Shown here: one piece after another, positions 1,511 through 39,370 of the stretch | How positions within the stretch are numbered: position 1 is the stretch's first letter | Layout of the letters: each line of letters starts with the position of its first letter | Assembly (NCBI RefSeq): GCF_006345805.1 | Contig: NC_043001.1 | Span: 103,168,001-103,232,000, forward strand | Reading direction: 5' to 3' | DNA from: Octopus sinensis | Lineage: Eukaryota | DNA length: 64,000 nucleotides | Position numbers and translations under genes: made by a program | The notes under the pieces: generated by a model | Databases searched by the model: none | What the model saw: only the letters and a program-made list of their open reading frames with translations | Told to the model about the DNA's origin: nothing

Positions 1511-1717
1511 TGCACGCCGGGCGAAATGCGTAGCCGTATTCCGTCTGCCGTTACGTTCTGAGTTCAAATTCCGCCGGGGTCGACTTTGCCTTTAATCCTT
1601 TCGGGGTCGATTAAATAAGTACCAGTTACGCACTGGGGTCGATGTAATCGACTTAATCCGTCTGTCTGTCATTGTTTGTCCCCTCTGTGTATAGCCCCTT
1701 GTGGGCAGTAAAGAAAT
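1511..1717 (+). mobile_element. SINE family A copy
   Basis: Near-identical to 941-1156. Confidence 0.9.
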
Positions 1718-2566
1718 GTATGAGCAAAAGAAAGAACCTCGACCTAGCAACAGTTTGCAAGAAATAACAGCCGAATATCTCTCGAAATGGCATACTAACA
1801 TAATTAAAAAAAAACTAGCGAACAATTTATAGCATAATGTCGTCGGACTGTAGAGTCCGTTAGAGTTCTGGGATCCCCTCGTTGATGAGAACAGGCGCAC
1901 TGTGAGAGTATAACATCTGTAGGATCTCTTTTGACTGAGCTGCAGCCCTCAGTAAATCCTAGATTCATGGAATGTTTTCCGGTACTCGGAGCATTCAAAT
2001 AACCACAAAATGCAGCCGGTGGAACGTCTGTTATATCAAACCTTTTTATTATTTCGTTGTTTAGTAAAGCACAAGCGATTACGCAATCTCTTGCTCTCCA
2101 TGAATATATTCGTATCAGTATGTATGGGTGCAGGCATGGCCGAATTACGAACAAATTCCCTTGAGATCATAAGTTCCTGAGAGCTAAGTCATTGCGTAGG
2201 ATTTTGAGCGTCTTCTATCATAATCTCTTTTACTCAATGCAAGCATTTTGAGCGAAATCGAATAACGGGAAATCGTCCGAAAATCCGGAGTGTGAAATTT
2301 ACTCGTAATGTCGAGGATCGGTTTTGTAATACGTGGGTCTCCGTTCAATTTCTGGCTTTGACAGATCCTGACATCAACCGAGTCCACGCAGAGATCCGTG
2401 TTCACAGGGTTTTCCGTGTCAACTTGGTTTTTAGATAAAAAGTAGGTACTGAAGGGGAGTCAATTGAAAACACTGACGACACACACACACACTCAGAGTG
2501 ATATATATGTATGTGTATGTGTATGTGCATATACATACATACATATATACATACACACACACACAC

Positions 2567-2606
<40 letters not shown>

Positions 2607-2669
2607 CTAGCTGAAGGTGACCCGCTCTACGCGCGGGTAAGAGTGTGGTATATATATATAAATGTATAC

Positions 2670-2705
<36 letters not shown>

Positions 2706-3538
2706 CAGATATATGCACTTTGTATATATAAAAATTATTATATATACATATTTATATATAGATACACACACACATATAAATTAACCCAATAAATATCTGA
2801 TTCATAATATTTGTTGTCATGATTGAGTGGTAGTGGTGGCGATGATAATTCTCTCTATGAATGCAGACAGACGTAGAGAGTTAGAGTGTGTGAAAGCGCT
2901 GTGGAAGGCAGGGAGGGGGGATAACGGACGCTGTGAAACGACGTTATAAAGAGAAAGTGAATGTAAGGTAGGTAGACGCTGTGAAACGACGTTATAGATA
3001 GAATGTGAAAGGAAGGGAGAAAAGTGAGTGAGTGATGGAGGAAGACAGATACATAAAAGAATGAGAGTGTTGGATGTTTTGTTTGTTGGAAAGAGGCAAT
3101 GTGTTTGTTTCAAAAATTAAAACATCTGTAATAGTGAATGAAATTAGAATTCACACCCAGCTCAGTTTTGTAGAAAGAGTATCACGATGTGAACTCATGA
3201 GTTGGGAGTTTGACTGAGAGAGTTTATATGGTGACACATGCCAGTCCTTTCGACACCACCTAAACAATGAATAGTGTATAAAATGTAATTAACAACTCAT
3301 TCACTTTATGAATGTCTTATGTTAGCGAAGAAACAATAACTTGACAAAACCGTTTAATGGAGACGTAGAAGGAATCGGAAAATGAGGAATAAAGAGAATG
3401 AGTTGGATCAAATGTTTGCAAACATCTGAACCCAACGTTCTTTATGAACCATGTTCTTTTTAATGTCTTTATTTTCAAGAATGAAGAGATAATGAAGAGG
3501 TGCAAAATAAAAATCAAGCAAAATTTCATGACTTACAA

Positions 3539-31413: not shown

Positions 31414-31473
<60 letters not shown>

Positions 31474-31474
<1 letters not shown>

Positions 31475-31707
31475 ATTTCTTTACAGCCCACAAGGGGCTA
31501 AACACAGAGAGGACAAACAAGGACAGACAAATGGATTACGTCTATTATATCGACCCCAGTGCGTAACTGGTACTTATTTAATCGACTCCGAAAGGATGAA
31601 AAGCAAAGTCGACCTCGGCAGAATTTAAACTCAGAACGTAACGGCAGACGAATACAGCTACGCATTTCGCCTGGCGTGCTAACGTGTCTGCCAGCATGTC
31701 GCCTTCT

Positions 31708-31744
<37 letters not shown>

Positions 31745-32004
31745 ATCTATCTATCTATCTATCTATCTATCTTATTTCTTTACAGCCCACAAGGGGCTAA
31801 ACACAGAGAGGACAAACAAGGACAGACAAATGGATTACGTCTATTATATCGACCCCAGTGCGTAACTGGTACTTATTTAATCGACTCCGAAAGGATGAAA
31901 AGCAAAGTCGACCTCGGCAGAATTTAAACTCAGAACGTAACGGCAGACGAAATACAGCTACGCATTTCGCCTGGCGTGCTAACGTGTCTGCCAGCATGTC
32001 GCCT

Positions 32005-32006
<2 letters not shown>
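31474..32006 (-). mobile_element. Tandem ~299-bp duplication of one SINE A copy within (TCTA)n
   Basis: Copies 31474-31706 and 31772-32006 share private variants (GGATTACGTCTATTATATCGAC, GACTCCGA, GCCAGCATGTCGCC). Confidence 0.9.
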
Positions 32007-32074
<68 letters not shown>

Positions 32075-34147
32075 GGCAGGCTTCGGTCCCGTCTTCCGCG
32101 GCTGGATAGCCGCTTTGTACAGAGGCATCCGTTCGGTAATTCGTGTGAATGGACATCTATCGAGACCCTTCGACATCGCACGTTCGGTCCGTCAGGGATG
32201 CCCCCTCTCGTCGCTTCTATACGTATTGACTCTCGAGCCATTATTGCGGAAGCTGGCAACTTTGAGGGGCATCCCGCGAGAACTGGGATGCGGGACGAGC
32301 GTGTCTGCATACGCGGACGACGTCACCGTCATAGTGTCTAGCCACGAGCACATCGAGCAGGTCGGCGAGACACTGAAAAACTACGAAGCGGTGACAGGAG
32401 CGAAAATCAACCGGGAAAAGTCAGTGGGCTTGCGACTAGGCACCTGGAGAAGCAAGCCCATGCCGTCCACCAGCGCCTCCGTCGTGGGACGCTGGACCGA
32501 CGGCCCGGTTGAGTTGCTCGGGGTCTGGTTTGGTCCGGACCTCCAAGTAGAGAAGAACTGGAACGAGATAACGAGTAGGGTGGTCACTCTCGCCCGGCAA
32601 TGGGCCGAGAGGAAACTGTCCCTAAAAGGTCGGGCGGAGGTGGCGAACACGTACATCGCGTCTGTCATCTACTACCGCCTGACCGTCGTACCTTGTCCCG
32701 ACCCTACCATCACCAAACTACAACGCATTCTCTTTCGCTTCTTGTGGAAAGGATTCGTCCCGATGGTCAGGCGATCCATTTGCTGTCAACACCCGTTAAA
32801 AGGAGGGCTGGGCATGCCGTGGTTGATGATGCGCAGACACGCGCTGAGACTGCGACATCTCTGGCTCTATGTAGACGACGGTGAACAGGTGTGGTCGCCG
32901 TTTGTGAGGTACGCTTTCCCGTAGCTCGTCTCCATGACCGAACTGCAGTCGTGGATCAAAAAGAGGCCGAGGAAGGGCGATTGGCACCGCGAGTGTCGCG
33001 TTGCTCTCAAGCAACTCTGCCGTCCCGGGTCGACCTTGAGTGACTTCAACACAACCAAAGCATTCTATAGGGGATTAGTGGAGGGGAGGTACGACGACGA
33101 GCTCGGGGCGAACCTGGACGTCGACGAGGAGTACCTGACCCGCCTGTTCAGGACGACTTTCGGGCCAGGGCCCATGGACAACTTCCAGAGATCCCTGGCC
33201 TGGCAGTGCTACCGAGAAGCGCTACCCGTTCGGGATAAGCTCTACAGACACGGCTCGAGAAACACGGGGCCGACCTGCCCGAGATGCGGTCAGACGACGA
33301 AACCGTTCTGCACGCACTCGTGCAGTGTCCAACAATTTCCGACCTGTGGGCTTATGTCGAACAACTGCTGTCACGTGTGGGACGAGTCAGTTTATCAGCT
33401 GAGTCTATCGTCAATATTGTCACGCCTCCTTCCTTCAAACGGGAAGGAAGAGCTATTTTCATCATCCTTGTGGCTATGGCGAAAGAATGTATCTGGTGGA
33501 CGCGTCTGAAAGGATTGGAGACAAACACTTTCCTCTTTGGTCAATCTCTCATCAACTTCTTCAAGTACCACTTGAAAAGGAAAGTGAGAGTAGAGAGGCA
33601 AGTTTTGTCTAGCGAATGTTTTAAAAAAAGATGGGTGAATGTAGCAAGGATGGCACGTATGAATGACGAAGCCACCTTGAGCATAATGCTATGAACCCAG
33701 AAATTGAAAACAGGGTTACCCACTTGCAAACAAATGTGGTAACATATAACAATATTGACCAAGGTTACCGTGGTCTTTTTCGTAGGCTTTTCTTCCCACG
33801 GATAAACCTTACTTGCTTTCCCCTTTACACCATATATCATAACACTGTGATACACGATCCCTATTGATCGTTTTTTTTTCTTCTTCCCCCTTTTTGCCCC
33901 TTTCTTCTTCTTTTTTCATTTCTCTTTCCTTTTGTTCCTTTTCCTTTTCTTTTTTTCCTTTTATTCCTTTTATTTTATTCAAATTTTTTTTTGTTCTTTT
34001 CTTCCCTTTTACGATCCCTCTTGATCGAAAACCTACGCCACCCCTTTTTTTTTCTTTTGTTTTTTGTTCTCTTCATCCCCCAAAAGAAAAGCTCTACCTT
34101 GTAACTTGTCCCATCTGTGTGCAGCCCTGTGTGGCCAATAAAGAAAC

Positions 34148-34150
<3 letters not shown>
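32075..34150 (+). mobile_element. 5'-truncated Tx1/L1-clade LINE embedded in (TCTA)n
   Basis: RT motifs VRQGCPLS and AYADDV, then CPRCGQ...HALVQC zinc knuckle; one in-frame stop (32922-32924) and a frameshift near 33290; T-rich 3'UTR; AATAAA at 34137-34142 followed by (TCTA)n rather than poly(A). Confidence 0.9.
32115..33694 (+). pseudogene. Tx1-like ORF2 C-terminal half (RT and zinc knuckle), disrupted
   Basis: ORFs 32115-32924, 32934-33509 and 33284-33694 join into one L1/Tx1-type ORF2. Confidence 0.85.
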
Positions 34151-34216
<66 letters not shown>

Positions 34217-34268
34217 CATCTATCCATCTATCTATCCATCTATCTATCCATCTATCCATTTATCCATC

Positions 34269-34333
34269 TGTTGTGTGTAGTTTGGGTTCTAATGGGATAG
34301 ACAACCAATTGAAAACCCAAACTACACACAACA
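34269..34333 (+). repeat. 65-nt fold-back cassette in place of the 5' LTR
   Basis: Perfect 20-bp arms TGTTGTGTGTAGTTTGGGTT (34269-34288) and AACCCAAACTACACACAACA (34314-34333); the first 40 nt are the reverse complement of 38816-38855 at 37/40. Confidence 0.95.
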
Positions 34334-34346
34334 TGGTGGCAGCGGT
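34334..34346 (+). promoter_or_regulatory. Primer-binding site, probably tRNA-Leu
   Basis: TGGTGGCAGCGGT is complementary to ...ACCGCUGCCACCA, the 3' end of animal tRNA-Leu isoacceptors. Confidence 0.75.
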
Positions 34347-34456
34347 AAATAATTAATCGAGAACTGTGCCTTTAAAACAAAACAGGAACACAACGAACGA
34401 GGAATTAACAAACAAAACATCGCTTCGTCTTCGGACAATAAACACGACGATCCAAG

Positions 34457-35661
34457 ATGGCGACCCCCGTCGCCGTACAGATGAATCTACATCCGATTAT
34501 GCACTGGGATTCTAGTGATGTCGTAGAAGCATTTAAAAAGTTTAAACAGAAAACTCAACTAGCTTTCAAAAGTTTCCTGAAAGGCACAACTGACGATGAA
34601 AAGGTAAGCTATATCCTTTTATGGTCAGGTAATAAAGGAATAGACCTATACAATAGCTGGGATATGTCAGAATCCGACTGCAATAACCCAGACACACTTC
34701 TTGAGAAATTTGAAAGGCACCTAGATCCCAGGTCGAACCATAGAATTCGCAGATACGAATTCCAGGGCCTGAAACAAGCCCCACAAGAAACAATTGACAA
34801 TTTCCTGTCAAGACTGAAAAATGTTGCAGAGAAATGCAAATTCAAAGACAGAGAGGAGAGAATTGTAGACCAATTAATATGGGGGTGTGCCCAGAAAGAA
34901 GTACAAAAATCACTAATAGGTAAGGACGCTCTCCAGTTGGTAGAAGCAGTAGACACTGCAAGAGCATTCGAAGCCACTACCAAACAAATGGCCTCACTTA
35001 GCTTACAAACAAGCTCACTAGATAGCAGTGTAGATATTGTATCTAGGCACAGGACACATATCCACAAACAAAGAACATGCCAGTACTGTGGTACAGAGCA
35101 TGAATTTAATGTCCTGCATTCGGTACACACTGCAAAGGATGTGGAAAACTTAACCACTGGAAAAAAATGTGTAGGGTAACAAAATCCCAGAGATACAAGC
35201 CCCAATTTTCAAAGAGGAGCAGAAATAGAAGGGATATACATGCACAACAACAGGAACAAAACACCTCAGAGGAGGAATTCTTAGCAATTGGCATAATAAA
35301 TGTGCATGAGATGGGAAAGGACGACCGGAAGAAAGAAGATGAGGCATACACGACAATAAGAATTCAAAAGAAGGTCGGAAGGAAAAGAACAAACATAGAC
35401 TTAAGGCTGAAGATAGACACTGGGGCCCAGAGTGATATCTTGCCTGTCAGTTTATACAAGAAGATGTTCCCAGAAAATATGACAGAAGAGGATAGGGTCA
35501 GGAAAGGAATCCTCACACCAAGTGATGTGGTCCTCACTGCGTACGGAGGTACCAGGATTCCACAACTGGGGAAAACAACGATTGGGGGACACACAAAAGG
35601 AAAACAACCGAGTGTACATTTTATGTCACAAGAACTGGACTCAATACCTGCAAAAAGCTAA
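34457..35661 (+). pseudogene. Gypsy gag and aspartic protease (frameshifted)
   Basis: Gag-like ORF with ETIDNFLSRLKNVAEKCKF...IVDQLIWG; CQYCG...H / CKGCGKLNHW zinc knuckles split by a frameshift near 35110; protease IDTGAQ. Confidence 0.85.
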
Positions 35662-35684
35662 AGATTGTATCAATCAATGCTGAA

Positions 35685-36980
35685 GTGAAAGCAGCTCCAA
35701 GCAGGATTGACAGTGATATGCCTATCAAAGATCGACCACAAATCACAAACAAAGAGGAACTGATAAGCATGTACCCTGAATGCTTTGACGATACAGTCGG
35801 GTGCTTTGTGAAATGTCGATATCATATAACAGTCGACCCCAATATCAAACGAATTGTTCACCCACCTCGCCGCGTCCCTCTAGAACTAAAAGAGAAGCTG
35901 AAGACAGAGTTGGACAAAATGGAAAAAAAGGAAATAATCACCAAAGTGACACGACCAACAGACTGGGTAAATTCAATTGTGATCAAGGAAAAACCCAATG
36001 GTACCCTACGGATATGCCTCGACCCAAGGGACTTGAACAAGGCATTAAAAAGGGAGTACCATCCAATTCCAACCCTTGAAGAAATCACACCATCATTGGC
36101 TGGATCCAAAATATTCAGCAAACTGGATGCCAGCAATGGGTACTGGAATATAAAAATAGACAAAGAGTCATCGATGCTCACTACCTTCAACACACCATTT
36201 GGCAGATATCAGTTCAACCGACTCCCATTTGGATTGAAGGTGAGCCAAGATGTTTTCCAGCGCCAAATAGATGAGACATACAAAGGCTGCAAGGGAGCAA
36301 TTGGAATAGCAGATGACATCCAAGTGCATGGCAAGGATAAGACCACACATGACTTCAATTTACATGAAGCTATGGAGAAAACCCGTCAAGCAGGCATCAA
36401 ACTCAATGCAGAAAAGTGTATAATAAAGGAAAAGGAGTGCAAATTCTTTGGAATTATATACTCTGCAGAGGGAGTTAAGCCAGACCCCGCTAAAGTGGAA
36501 GCCATCAGAGACATTAAAGATCCTAAGGACAGGAAGGAACTCAGGAGCTTCCTGGGACTCATCAACTACATGGGAGCTTTCATACCCAAGCTGGCCGATC
36601 ACACTGCAAATCTCCGAGAACTAAACAGAGATGACGTAGAGTTTGATTGGTGTGTTTCACACACACAGGATTTCAACACAATCAAAAAGCTCATCAGTAA
36701 GGAGACAACTCTGCAATACTATGACAGACGGAAACCAGTAACACTCCAAGTCGATGCTTCTATGAGAGGAGTTGGCACAGCACTGATACAGGAAGGTAAA
36801 CCCATTGCATATGCCTCGAAAGCTCTCTCACCCACAGAGACAAGGTACGCGAATATTGAAAGGGAACTCCTGGCAGTAGTATATGGATGCGAAAAGTTCC
36901 ATACATACCTGTATGGCAGACATTTCAATATAGAAACAGACCATCGCCCGCTAGAACAAATACATAGAAAAACCTCATGA
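35685..36980 (+). CDS. Gypsy reverse transcriptase and RNase H
   Basis: LRICLDPRDLN, FSKLDASNGYW, RLPFGL, IADDI, LRSFLGLINY, VDAS, YANIERELLAVVYG, ETDHRPL. Confidence 0.92.
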   Translation: MKAAPSRIDSDMPIKDRPQITNKEELISMYPECFDDTVGCFVKCRYHITVDPNIKRIVHPPRRVPLELKEKLKTELDKMEKKEIITKVTRPTDWVNSIVIKEKPNGTLRICLDPRDLNKALKREYHPIPTLEEITPSLAGSKIFSKLDASNGYWNIKIDKESSMLTTFNTPFGRYQFNRLPFGLKVSQDVFQRQIDETYKGCKGAIGIADDIQVHGKDKTTHDFNLHEAMEKTRQAGIKLNAEKCIIKEKECKFFGIIYSAEGVKPDPAKVEAIRDIKDPKDRKELRSFLGLINYMGAFIPKLADHTANLRELNRDDVEFDWCVSHTQDFNTIKKLISKETTLQYYDRRKPVTLQVDASMRGVGTALIQEGKPIAYASKALSPTETRYANIERELLAVVYGCEKFHTYLYGRHFNIETDHRPLEQIHRKTS

Positions 36981-38452
36981 AAGCACCAGCCAGACTGCAA
37001 AGATTACTGTTAAGGCTTCAAACATATGACTATGATATCAGGTACAAGCCAGGAAAAGACACGATATTGGCGGATGCTCTTTCCAGACTATCCTCACATG
37101 ATAAACAGGAGATGGAAGGACTGAGCATAAAGGTCCACCACATTGTAAATGTGACAACCACAAAGCTAGCGGAAATCAAAGAGGAGACCAGCAAAGATGA
37201 AGAACTTCAGCTCCTTACTCAGATGGTGATTCAGGGGTGGCCAGAAAAGAGACATCAGGTACAACCCCTGATTCGTGAATATTGGGCCATCCATGATGAT
37301 ATATCAGTGGAGAATGGGATCCTGATGGCTGGATCTCGAATAATTATACCCAAGTCAATGCAAGAAGAGATTCTTGACAAGATCCACCAAGGGCATCTCG
37401 GAATGGAAAAATGCAAGCTCCGAGCCAAGTCAGCAGTATATTGGGTAGGCATGTACAAAGACATAGAAAAGACAGTTTCTACATGCCACATTTGTCAAAA
37501 GTACAGAAACTCACAACAAAAGGAAGAAATGATATCTAGTGACATCCCAAGAAGGCCATGGTAAACTATTGGAGTAGATCTGTTCACAGAGGGCCAAGAA
37601 TGGTATTTGATAATAGCCTGCTACTACTCTAAATTTCCATTTGTGAGAAAAATTAAAGACCTGACAGCCAAAACAATCACTACAGTGGCTCGAGGACTCC
37701 TAGCAGAGCAAGGAATACCAGAGCAGGTCATATGTGACAATGGAACCCAGTTCACATCACAAGAATTCAAAAAGCTAGCCGATGAGTATGGGTTCAATAT
37801 TACAACTTCATCTCCACACTACCCCAAAGGTCATGGGTTTATAGAAAGACAGGTGCAGACAGTGAAGAGAACACTAGTCAAATGCCGAGAGACTAAGGAA
37901 GACCCACACCTGGCACTTCTGTCCCTACGAGCGACACCACTAAGAGCTGATATGAAATCCCCAGCAGAATTGCTGAATGGCAGGAAGTATAAAACTACCC
38001 TGCCAACTAAGATCCAACCTCCTATTGACCAGGAAAAGACAAGGGCAAAGCTAGCATCCACTCAAGAACAATCACAGAGGTATTACAACAAACATGAACA
38101 ATACTTACCTGAGATACTTGGAGGACAACATGTGCATACTCAAGATCCCATAACTAAAACATGGATCCCAGCAAAGGTTGTCAGTAGAGCTGAAACTCCA
38201 AGATCGTATATAATAGAAACGGAATCTGGTAGGCAGCTGAGACGCAACAGGGCCCACATCCGCCCAACACCAGAGCTGTCGAGGAAAACGTGTACAACAC
38301 CTGCTGCATTGGTGACAACACCCACAAAATCATCACCCCAACGGGCACAAACCACATATCAGCAGCCCAACAACACACCTCAGACACCGGTGCGAAGCAC
38401 AAGATCCACCAGATGGAGAAAGAACATTCTGCCACCGGTTCGATACCGTTAA
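36977..38452 (+). pseudogene. Gypsy integrase (HHCC and DDE), one in-frame stop at 37562-37564
   Basis: IHQGHLG...CHIC; GVDLF; CDNGTQF; GFIERQVQTVK; RRNRAHIR. Confidence 0.9.
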
Positions 38453-38637
38453 AGAAAAAAAAAAGGAAATGAAAAGAGAAGTATCTAATTCAGCTAGACT
38501 ACAAAACAGAGGCAGAATAATCTCACGACTTCTGCTGTAGGATTGCCACCTCAGGCTGACAACCCATGGAGCAAGGGAGACTACTCATAGTTGTCTTCAC
38601 TGCCAGAAGACCCCTTTTATTTTTTTTCAAGAAGGGA

Positions 38638-38855
38638 TGTTACACATTCATATCTATGTGTTTGCGTATGCCAAACTACATCCCCACTCTTGGCACTATT
38701 TTGTTAGTGAACAGTACAACTGTGTGTAAAGTATATAATGTATTACTACGCTGAATGTCGTCGTCCGTGTATCATGAATAGTCGATAAACACGTAACAAT
38801 AACAATGGTTTTCTTTTGGTTGTCTATCCCATTAGAACACAAACTACGCATAACA
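38638..38855 (+). repeat. Single 218-bp 3' LTR, preceded by PPT AAGAAGGGA (38629-38637)
   Basis: Begins TGTTA right after a T-run and purine tract; ends TAACA. Confidence 0.8.
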
Positions 38856-38869
38856 CCATCTATCCATCC

Positions 38870-38936
<67 letters not shown>

Positions 38937-38942
38937 CATCTA

Positions 38943-39367
38943 GCCACCTTGAGCATAATCCTATGAACCCAGAAATTGAAAACAGAGGGTTACCCACTTG
39001 CAAACAAATGTGGTAACATAACAATATTGACCGAGGTTACCGTGGTTTTTTTCGTAGGCTTTTCTTCCCACGGATAAACCTTATCTGCTTCCCCCTTTAC
39101 ACCGTACATCATGACACTGTGACACACGATCCCTATTGATCGTTTTTTTCCCTCTTCCCTTTTTTCTTCTTTTTTCCTTTTCTTTTCTCTTGTTTCTTTT
39201 CCTTTTTTTCTTTTTTTTTCTTTTTTCCCTTTTACGATCCCTTTTGATCGAAAACCTACGCCACTTTTTTTTTTTTTATTTTTGTTTTTTTTTCATCCCC
39301 CAAAAGAAAAGCTCTACCTTGTAATTTTTCCCATCTGTGTGCAGCCCTGTGTGGCCAATAAAGAAAC

Positions 39368-39370
<3 letters not shown>
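38943..39370 (+). mobile_element. Second, heavily 5'-truncated copy of the Tx1-like LINE (mostly 3'UTR) in (TCTA)n
   Basis: Aligns to 33671-34150 with the same terminus GCCAATAAAGAAACTTA followed by (TCTA)n. Confidence 0.9.

Follow-up and report, generated by a model that had tools for sequence, protein, structure and literature searches.

The 64,000-nt stretch of Octopus sinensis DNA analysed here (the window, in which all positions are counted; sibling loci, given as L-numbers, lie in the same genome assembly) holds a copy of a Gypsy retroelement whose parts follow one another in the order CCATC, 65 nt, transfer RNA (tRNA) primer-binding site (PBS), gag-pol, polypurine tract (PPT), a single 218-bp long terminal repeat (LTR) and again CCATC, as listed in Table 1. 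This window copy belongs to an ordinary Gypsy family but is defective, a hairpin of U5 (unique 5′) sequence standing in place of its 5′ LTR. The initial annotation had counted 65 nt upstream of the PBS and described a perfect 20-bp hairpin, and both hold: the 65 nt run from the left end at 34269 to the PBS at 34334, and the repeat finder returned the hairpin at 34269-34288 / 34314-34333. It also returned 34269-34317 and 38807-38855 as an inverted repeat of 49 nt, and the inverted arm thus gives the element a U5-type left end and an imperfect 49-bp terminal inverted repeat (TIR). Over 49/49 positions the arm is identical to the U5 in L047, a solo LTR located elsewhere in the genome, and it agrees with the element's own 3′ LTR at 44/49, the mismatches being at LTR positions 177, 178, 202, 211 and 214. 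The inverted U5 proposed for the 5′ end therefore stands, but not its division into 40 nt and a TTGAA spacer; TTGAA lies inside the 49-nt arm, and the match to L047 rules it out as a non-templated spacer. A PPT and a 218-bp LTR were found at the 3′ end only, as expected from the annotation, and no further piece of the element occurs elsewhere within the window.

The coding region differs by 3.8% from that of sibling L063 and carries several frameshifts and one stop. The order protease, reverse transcriptase (RT), RNase H and integrase is that of Gypsy elements, as are the tRNA PBS and the PPT, and the best solved structural match of the RT is Ty3 Gag-Pol (E 1.3e-45), well above retroviral RTs. 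No Pfam match was obtained for the two gag/protease frames. Two direct LTRs are lacking in the window copy and present in its family (28 pairs), and the element thus derives from a Gypsy family as an aberrant copy and does not count as a canonical member. The start of gag and the tRNA-Leu PBS recall Mag-like elements, to which the family may belong.

Table 1. Features of the window copy and of the inverted-LTR copies at other loci (TSD, target-site duplication; U3, unique 3′ part of the LTR)
Locus	Feature	Position or length	Strand	TSD	Remarks and basis
Window	Left TSD	34264..34268	+	CCATC	Inside (TATC/CATC)n microsatellite 34149-34268; phase test
Window	Inverted U5 end, reverse complement of LTR 170-218 (last 49 nt)	34269..34317	-		Sequence comparison
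Window	Fold-back junction microhomology AACC, 4 nt	34314..34317	+		Overlap of inverted and forward arms
Window	Forward U5 end, LTR 199-218	34314..34333	+		Sole remnant of 5′ LTR
Window	PBS, 13 nt	34334..34346	+		Complementary to 3′ end (with CCA) of host tRNA-Leu
Window	gag, ATG 34457	34457..35661	+		CCHC knuckle and aspartic protease motif DTGA, read from translation; frameshift near 35108; indels relative to sibling L063
Window	RT and RNase H	35718..36980	+		PF00078, PF17919, PF17917; frame breaks near 35585-35636 and 36968
Window	Integrase, H2C2 zinc-binding domain and rve core	36968..38452	+		PF17921, PF00665; stop at 37562-37564
Window	PPT	38629..38637	+		Shorter than in most siblings
Window	3′ LTR, normal, 218 bp	38638..38855	+		TG...CA; TATA-like at LTR 95
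Window	Right TSD	38856..38860	+	CCATC	Followed by remaining microsatellite
L081 (C2)	Inverted U5 at 5′ end	476 bp		CTTAG	
L061 (C10186)	Inverted U5 at 5′ end, 200-nt arm			No 5-bp TSD	172-bp flank duplication with 6 mismatches
L062	U3 at both ends, short	278 bp		CCATC	
L085	U3 at both ends, short	295 bp		ATAAC	
L087	U3 at both ends, short	392 bp		CAGGG/CAGAG	
L088	U3 at both ends, short	339 bp		GTGGT	
L089	U3 at both ends, short	301 bp		GATGC	
L114	U3 at both ends, short			CAGAA	Left end without first bases
L098	U3 at both ends, long	4.6 kb		AATAC	232-bp arms, 4 mismatches
L099	Internal: after PBS, fold-back of about 60 nt, then internal region and normal 3′ LTR			ATGGG	

The CCATC reported earlier at both termini is present at 34264-34268 and 38856-38860. 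This five-mer is common in the flanking microsatellite (4/83 five-mers on the right and 5/116 on the left), so that its presence on both sides is by itself weak evidence of a TSD. In the phase test, however, the 4-bp phase of the microsatellite was restored solely by removal of 1, 5 or 9 bases, and a perfect 5-bp TSD was found in 25 of the 28 two-LTR sibling pairs. The sequence fits a true 5-bp target duplication, and on the phase test together with the family norm CCATC was accepted as genuine.

How the family as a whole is built was assessed in the same genome. A search with the 5′ 192 nt aligned only the window copy from end to end (40/258 candidates scored). The exact LTR end joined to the PBS motif occurs at 39 sites, all of which were classed: 26 junctions are ordinary (one cut by a contig end and one with the start of the 5′ LTR unaligned), three have an internally deleted 5′ LTR (two of them representing one duplicated locus), one continues from the LTR into tRNA read-through (L097) and nine carry an inverted piece of LTR. 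Targeted patterns yielded two more inverted-LTR copies, which were left out of the rate and bring the total to 11 among 54 distinct LTR-PBS contexts. The window junction itself was found in no other copy among the 39 exact junctions, the scored matches and the targeted patterns. Counted alone, the LTR-end motif has 286 occurrences and a control has 76, giving about 210 LTR ends and, as a very rough estimate from motif counts with the matches uninspected, about 180 insertions including solo LTRs. Fold-back copies thereby make up about one quarter of the PBS-bearing copies and about 5% of the insertions, the former figure being inflated since a copy without two direct LTRs cannot collapse to a solo LTR. 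Young siblings have two direct LTRs, and the family is an ordinary two-LTR Gypsy family.

The 11 inverted-LTR copies, the window copy included, each lie at their own site; three have an inverted U5, seven have U3 at both ends and one is folded back internally. The TSD is a perfect 5 bp in 9/11 and matches at 4/5 bp in one more. L098 is the mirror image of the window copy. In L099 the folded-back strand reaches a normal 3′ LTR and a TSD, from which it follows that a later transfer can rescue a hairpin strand.

Several of these junctions carry marks of reverse transcription. L062, L089, L099 and L114 have an 18-nt PBS of tRNA type and reverse direction precisely where it ends; they read GGGAT at this point, most normal copies AAATA. 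This GGGAT fold-back recurs across subfamilies and with differing TSDs. Plus strong-stop DNA is expected to have its 3′ end where the 18-nt copy of the tRNA stops, as established for LTR elements. In L088 the copy-back runs through the PPT itself. L081 consists of a 97-nt inverted U5/R arm, which ends about 30 nt downstream of the TATA-like box in the LTR of its subfamily (the predicted RNA start) with one unmatched C, followed by forward U5, 58 nt of tRNA-Leu(AAG) and 260 nt of inverted internal sequence, the far end of which lies next to an internal PPT look-alike. The tRNA piece includes CCA, which is not encoded by the host tRNA genes, and differs from the gene in five places, namely A58 (T>G), A34 (T>C), one deletion and two G>A. 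The modifications m1A58 and inosine-34 are expected in such a tRNA and would cause changes at A58 and A34. L081 shows the same event as the window copy, on the minus strand. Since tRNA read-through, fixed turns at the tRNA end and PPT copy-back are beyond host DNA repair, they argue for an origin in reverse transcription; it is likely that nascent strands of this family self-prime and that integrase still inserts the products. The origin by fold-back as a one-off aberrant product, suggested in the initial annotation, is thus supported, chiefly through sibling loci.

For the window copy the hairpin end likely arose from a nascent strand folding back during reverse transcription, its product being inserted by integrase. 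An origin of whatever kind at the stage of reverse transcription is held with high confidence, and the specific route in which a self-primed minus strand substituted for plus strong-stop DNA is considered probable, with moderate confidence. By that route the minus strand primed by tRNA-Leu would halt at 49 nt, roughly midway to the predicted RNA start; its 3′ AACC would pair with its own GGTT, and RT would copy back U5 over 16 nt together with the tRNA primer. The copied-back strand would end in the PBS, resembling plus strong-stop DNA, and the folded strand would anneal through it to a complete minus strand made from the second packaged RNA, whereupon both would be extended to a linear DNA with U5 ...CA ends on both sides, which integrase would insert with the 5-bp duplication usual in the family. 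For the U3-U3 copies, a fresh priming event at the PPT would be the simplest source of a second strand. Both ends of the window copy are exact att termini with a 5-bp TSD. The U5 haplotype of the arm, intact in L047, differs from the element's own 3′ LTR at 5/49 sites where the median among 28 sibling pairs is 1, and this difference would suit two templates. Without a 5′ U3 promoter and R the window product is predicted to be a dead end.

A number of observations weigh against this route. In two of the 28 normal pairs at least 5 of the same 49 sites differ (in one of them through indels), and this route is therefore not singled out by the haplotype difference. The PBS of the window copy is of the genomic type, lacking extra tRNA-derived bases, and its route is therefore argued from siblings. 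The 4-bp stem required is unfavourable: its folding energy is +0.5 kcal/mol, and the 49-nt strand reaches -2.9 in its best fold. A preformed hairpin as cause of the fold-back is unsupported by these energies. The arm stops near LTR position 170, while the RNA start is predicted near 125. L061, whose inverted arm differs from its 3′ LTR at 15 sites and by indels, may have another origin. Minus strong-stop self-priming in HIV-1 is described as a dead end for first strand transfer, suppressed by nucleocapsid and undetected in endogenous reactions (PMC6088434, in the part of the article available). The idea that fold-back is frequent in the octopus family because the nucleocapsid domain was lost is likewise unsupported, the CCHC knuckle being present. 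Of eight public runs, none of them shown to be from the same individual and none containing >45% of the query words, two of raw reads yielded no alignment, and among the contigs listed for the other six none spans the window junction, which counts neither for nor against it; normal LTR contigs from other samples have loose ends precisely at 34314 and 34317.

The alternative closest to this route is a late template switch, in which, after a normal second strand transfer, the minus strand copies 20 nt of U5 from plus strong-stop DNA, jumps at GGTT/AACC to the single-stranded 5′ end of a minus strand and runs to its end, giving the second U5 end. It predicts the identical sequence and an integrase-made TSD, which also counts against the preferred route; it makes a premature stop unnecessary, agrees with the genomic-type PBS and, if intermolecular, explains the two U5 haplotypes as well. 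It requires, however, that minus-strand U5 be single-stranded 30 nt ahead of the fork, and the diagnostic sibling junctions (L081, L062, L089, L099, L114 and L088) indicate fold-back of strong-stop DNA, for which reasons we regard it as rather unlikely. A switch of template during host replication after insertion, leaving the 5′ LTR at AACC, copying the opposite strand and returning at the short inverted repeat formed by the LTR's own termini (TGTT/AACA) with about 200 bp replaced, is improbable. Short template switches that produce inversions and inverted repeats from no more than 2-3 identical bases provide a genomic precedent (PMC5453318, as far as its accessible text extends), TGTT is common to the LTR termini, and such an event would keep the TSD and make the arms identical. 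It gives no account of the modification-like tRNA read-through in L081, the four tRNA-end junctions, the PPT copy-back in L088 or the short U3-U3 copies, and with a fold-back class present in the family a separate cause is less economical.

That a chimeric fold-back long read produced the junction as an assembly artefact is very improbable. The site lies within repeats, the two 20-nt arms are identical and no listed contig bridges the junction, although contigs break in repeats; yet the boundary of the inversion coincides exactly with the LTR terminus and adjoins a TSD consistent with the microsatellite phase, and the class is seen at ten other loci, several of them with diverged arms (4/232 in L098). 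Least credible of all, and given next to no weight, is a family-wide alternative architecture or replication route, that is a TIR-bounded Gypsy lineage, which the initial annotation had offered as its second possibility. Inverted pieces are indeed frequent (9/39 exact LTR-PBS junctions), but this frequency is inflated by the inability of fold-back copies to collapse to solo LTRs; the inverted copies lie at different sites with different junctions, and young siblings have two direct LTRs. With 26/39 junctions ordinary and no second copy carrying the window junction the idea fails in this assembly. Comparison of sibling 5′ ends, which had been advised, did not reveal the same hairpin at other loci, but it did reveal fold-backs at many different junctions and on both strands. 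Fold-back of a nascent strand during reverse transcription accordingly remains the preferred explanation for the window copy.

Other irregular members of the family were noted. L065, L066, L067, L070, L071, L072, L076, L078 and others have a common internal deletion (L063 ~1663-3009) by which RT is lost, suggesting a non-autonomous subfamily that was itself copied. In L072 and in L091, L100 and L103 the 5′ LTR has a direct internal deletion with both termini kept; that of L072 sits at a 10-nt direct repeat, and the other three have common flanks and represent one duplicated locus. L134 (G000:C1:203793400-203800400, minus) combines a normal 5′ LTR with internal sequence of about 1.47 kb, has the TSD ATGTG and retains at its 3′ end only the last 51 nt of the LTR (168-218). 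The break is 2 nt away from the end of the window arm (170), which hints that a short minus-strand product may be preferred; deletion at a later time is also possible. L097 (G000:C8:95804000-95810100) is an LTR standing alone; read-through into tRNA-Leu (about 30 nt) and a turn-back of 7 nt come after it, and neither an internal region nor a 5-bp TSD was seen at the locus. Dense tRNA-Leu-like arrays on the small unplaced contigs G000:C518, C8813 and C10399 account for 37/57 exact motif matches.

The surroundings of the window copy are repetitive. Its left flank (~32075-34268) is formed by the 3′ portion of a young non-LTR retrotransposon of high copy number with RT motifs and a (TATC)n tail, at the end of which the Gypsy copy sits; 39 other scored copies of this repeat are 98-99% identical. 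An older 3′ fragment of the same repeat, 83% identical and with its own tail, lies at 38942-39370. Just upstream of the non-LTR element, at 31414-32071, there is a 299-bp tandem repeat (2.2 copies, 98% match) with TATC runs.

The window copy is thus a one-off aberrant insertion, yet a member of a recurrent fold-back class with signatures of reverse transcription, and this recurrent error class makes TIR-bounded integrase carriers in one step. The loci suggest that strong-stop DNA which has primed itself can still be rescued and integrated, and that integrase does not require one U3 and one U5 end. They form a genomic record of reverse-transcription intermediates otherwise mostly studied in vitro, and tools that detect two direct LTRs would overlook such copies or label them TIR elements. 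A stronger claim, which we hold to be unlikely, is that strong-stop self-priming, far from being a dead end, is a routine side route in this family, with about 1/20 insertions derived from folded-back strands, that in the germ line integrase takes U5-U5, U3-U3 and cryptic pairs of ends, and that one event places an integrase gene within TIRs of 50-230 bp. If true, routine self-priming would supply the one-step transition, so far missing, between Gypsy elements and Ginger-like DNA transposons.

In relation to known systems, the window copy resembles Ty3/Gypsy elements in its gag-PR-RT-RNase H-IN order (PR, protease; IN, integrase), tRNA PBS, PPT, TG...CA LTR and 5-bp TSD, and differs from them in having no 5′ LTR and U5 at both ends. 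Aberrant retroviral proviruses with large duplications and the in vitro integration of like-ended donors are known, and L1 twin priming is a loose analogue. The literature searched, which lacked most subscription journals, including much of the work on retroviruses and yeast Ty, yielded no account of LTR copies integrated as U5-U5 or U3-U3 fold-backs. The self-priming of HIV-1 is alike in that RT extends the 3′ end of the nascent strand, once folded back, along the strand's own U5; according to the accessible portion of PMC6088434 it depends on the long cTAR hairpin and takes place in vitro without nucleocapsid, whereas in the octopus family microhomologies of 1-8 nt suffice, both strands are involved, a CCHC knuckle is present and the products are completed, integrated and inherited. 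Complex LTR insertions in Triticeae are integrated products of abnormal template switching and, as here, aberrant reverse-transcription products persisting as genomic fossils; in the available part of that account (PMC1950507) they fuse two elements around a common direct LTR, whereas the octopus copies are inverted, U5-U5 or U3-U3. Foldback rearrangements of L1 are attributed, in the text available, to host double-strand breaks and thus to a different process (10.1101/2024.12.14.628481). DIRS elements are likewise retroelements with inverted terminal repeats, but by the partial account available to us use a tyrosine recombinase where the window copy has a DDE integrase (PF00665), and membership was rejected as the domain search gave rve and H2C2 domains and no recombinase match.

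Ginger1, as described in the accessible sections of PMC2836005, shares with the window copy a Gypsy-like integrase between TIRs starting with TGT, and the TIR lengths of 40-270 bp given there include those of the window copy (49 bp, imperfect) and of L098 (232 bp). It is a DNA transposon with a 4-bp TSD (CCGG/CCGT), extra C-terminal domains and multi-copy families, whereas the window copy has RT/RNase H, a PBS, a PPT and the 5-bp TSD CCATC and is single-copy; membership in Ginger1 was rejected on the TSD, the presence of RT and the unique junction. At the octopus loci one copying error can yield the TIR layout, and none of them has spread. In the part of their paper available, Bao et al. called it unclear by what chain of events an LTR retrotransposon becomes a DNA transposon with TIRs, and proposed a pair of separate, oppositely oriented insertions (PMC2836005).

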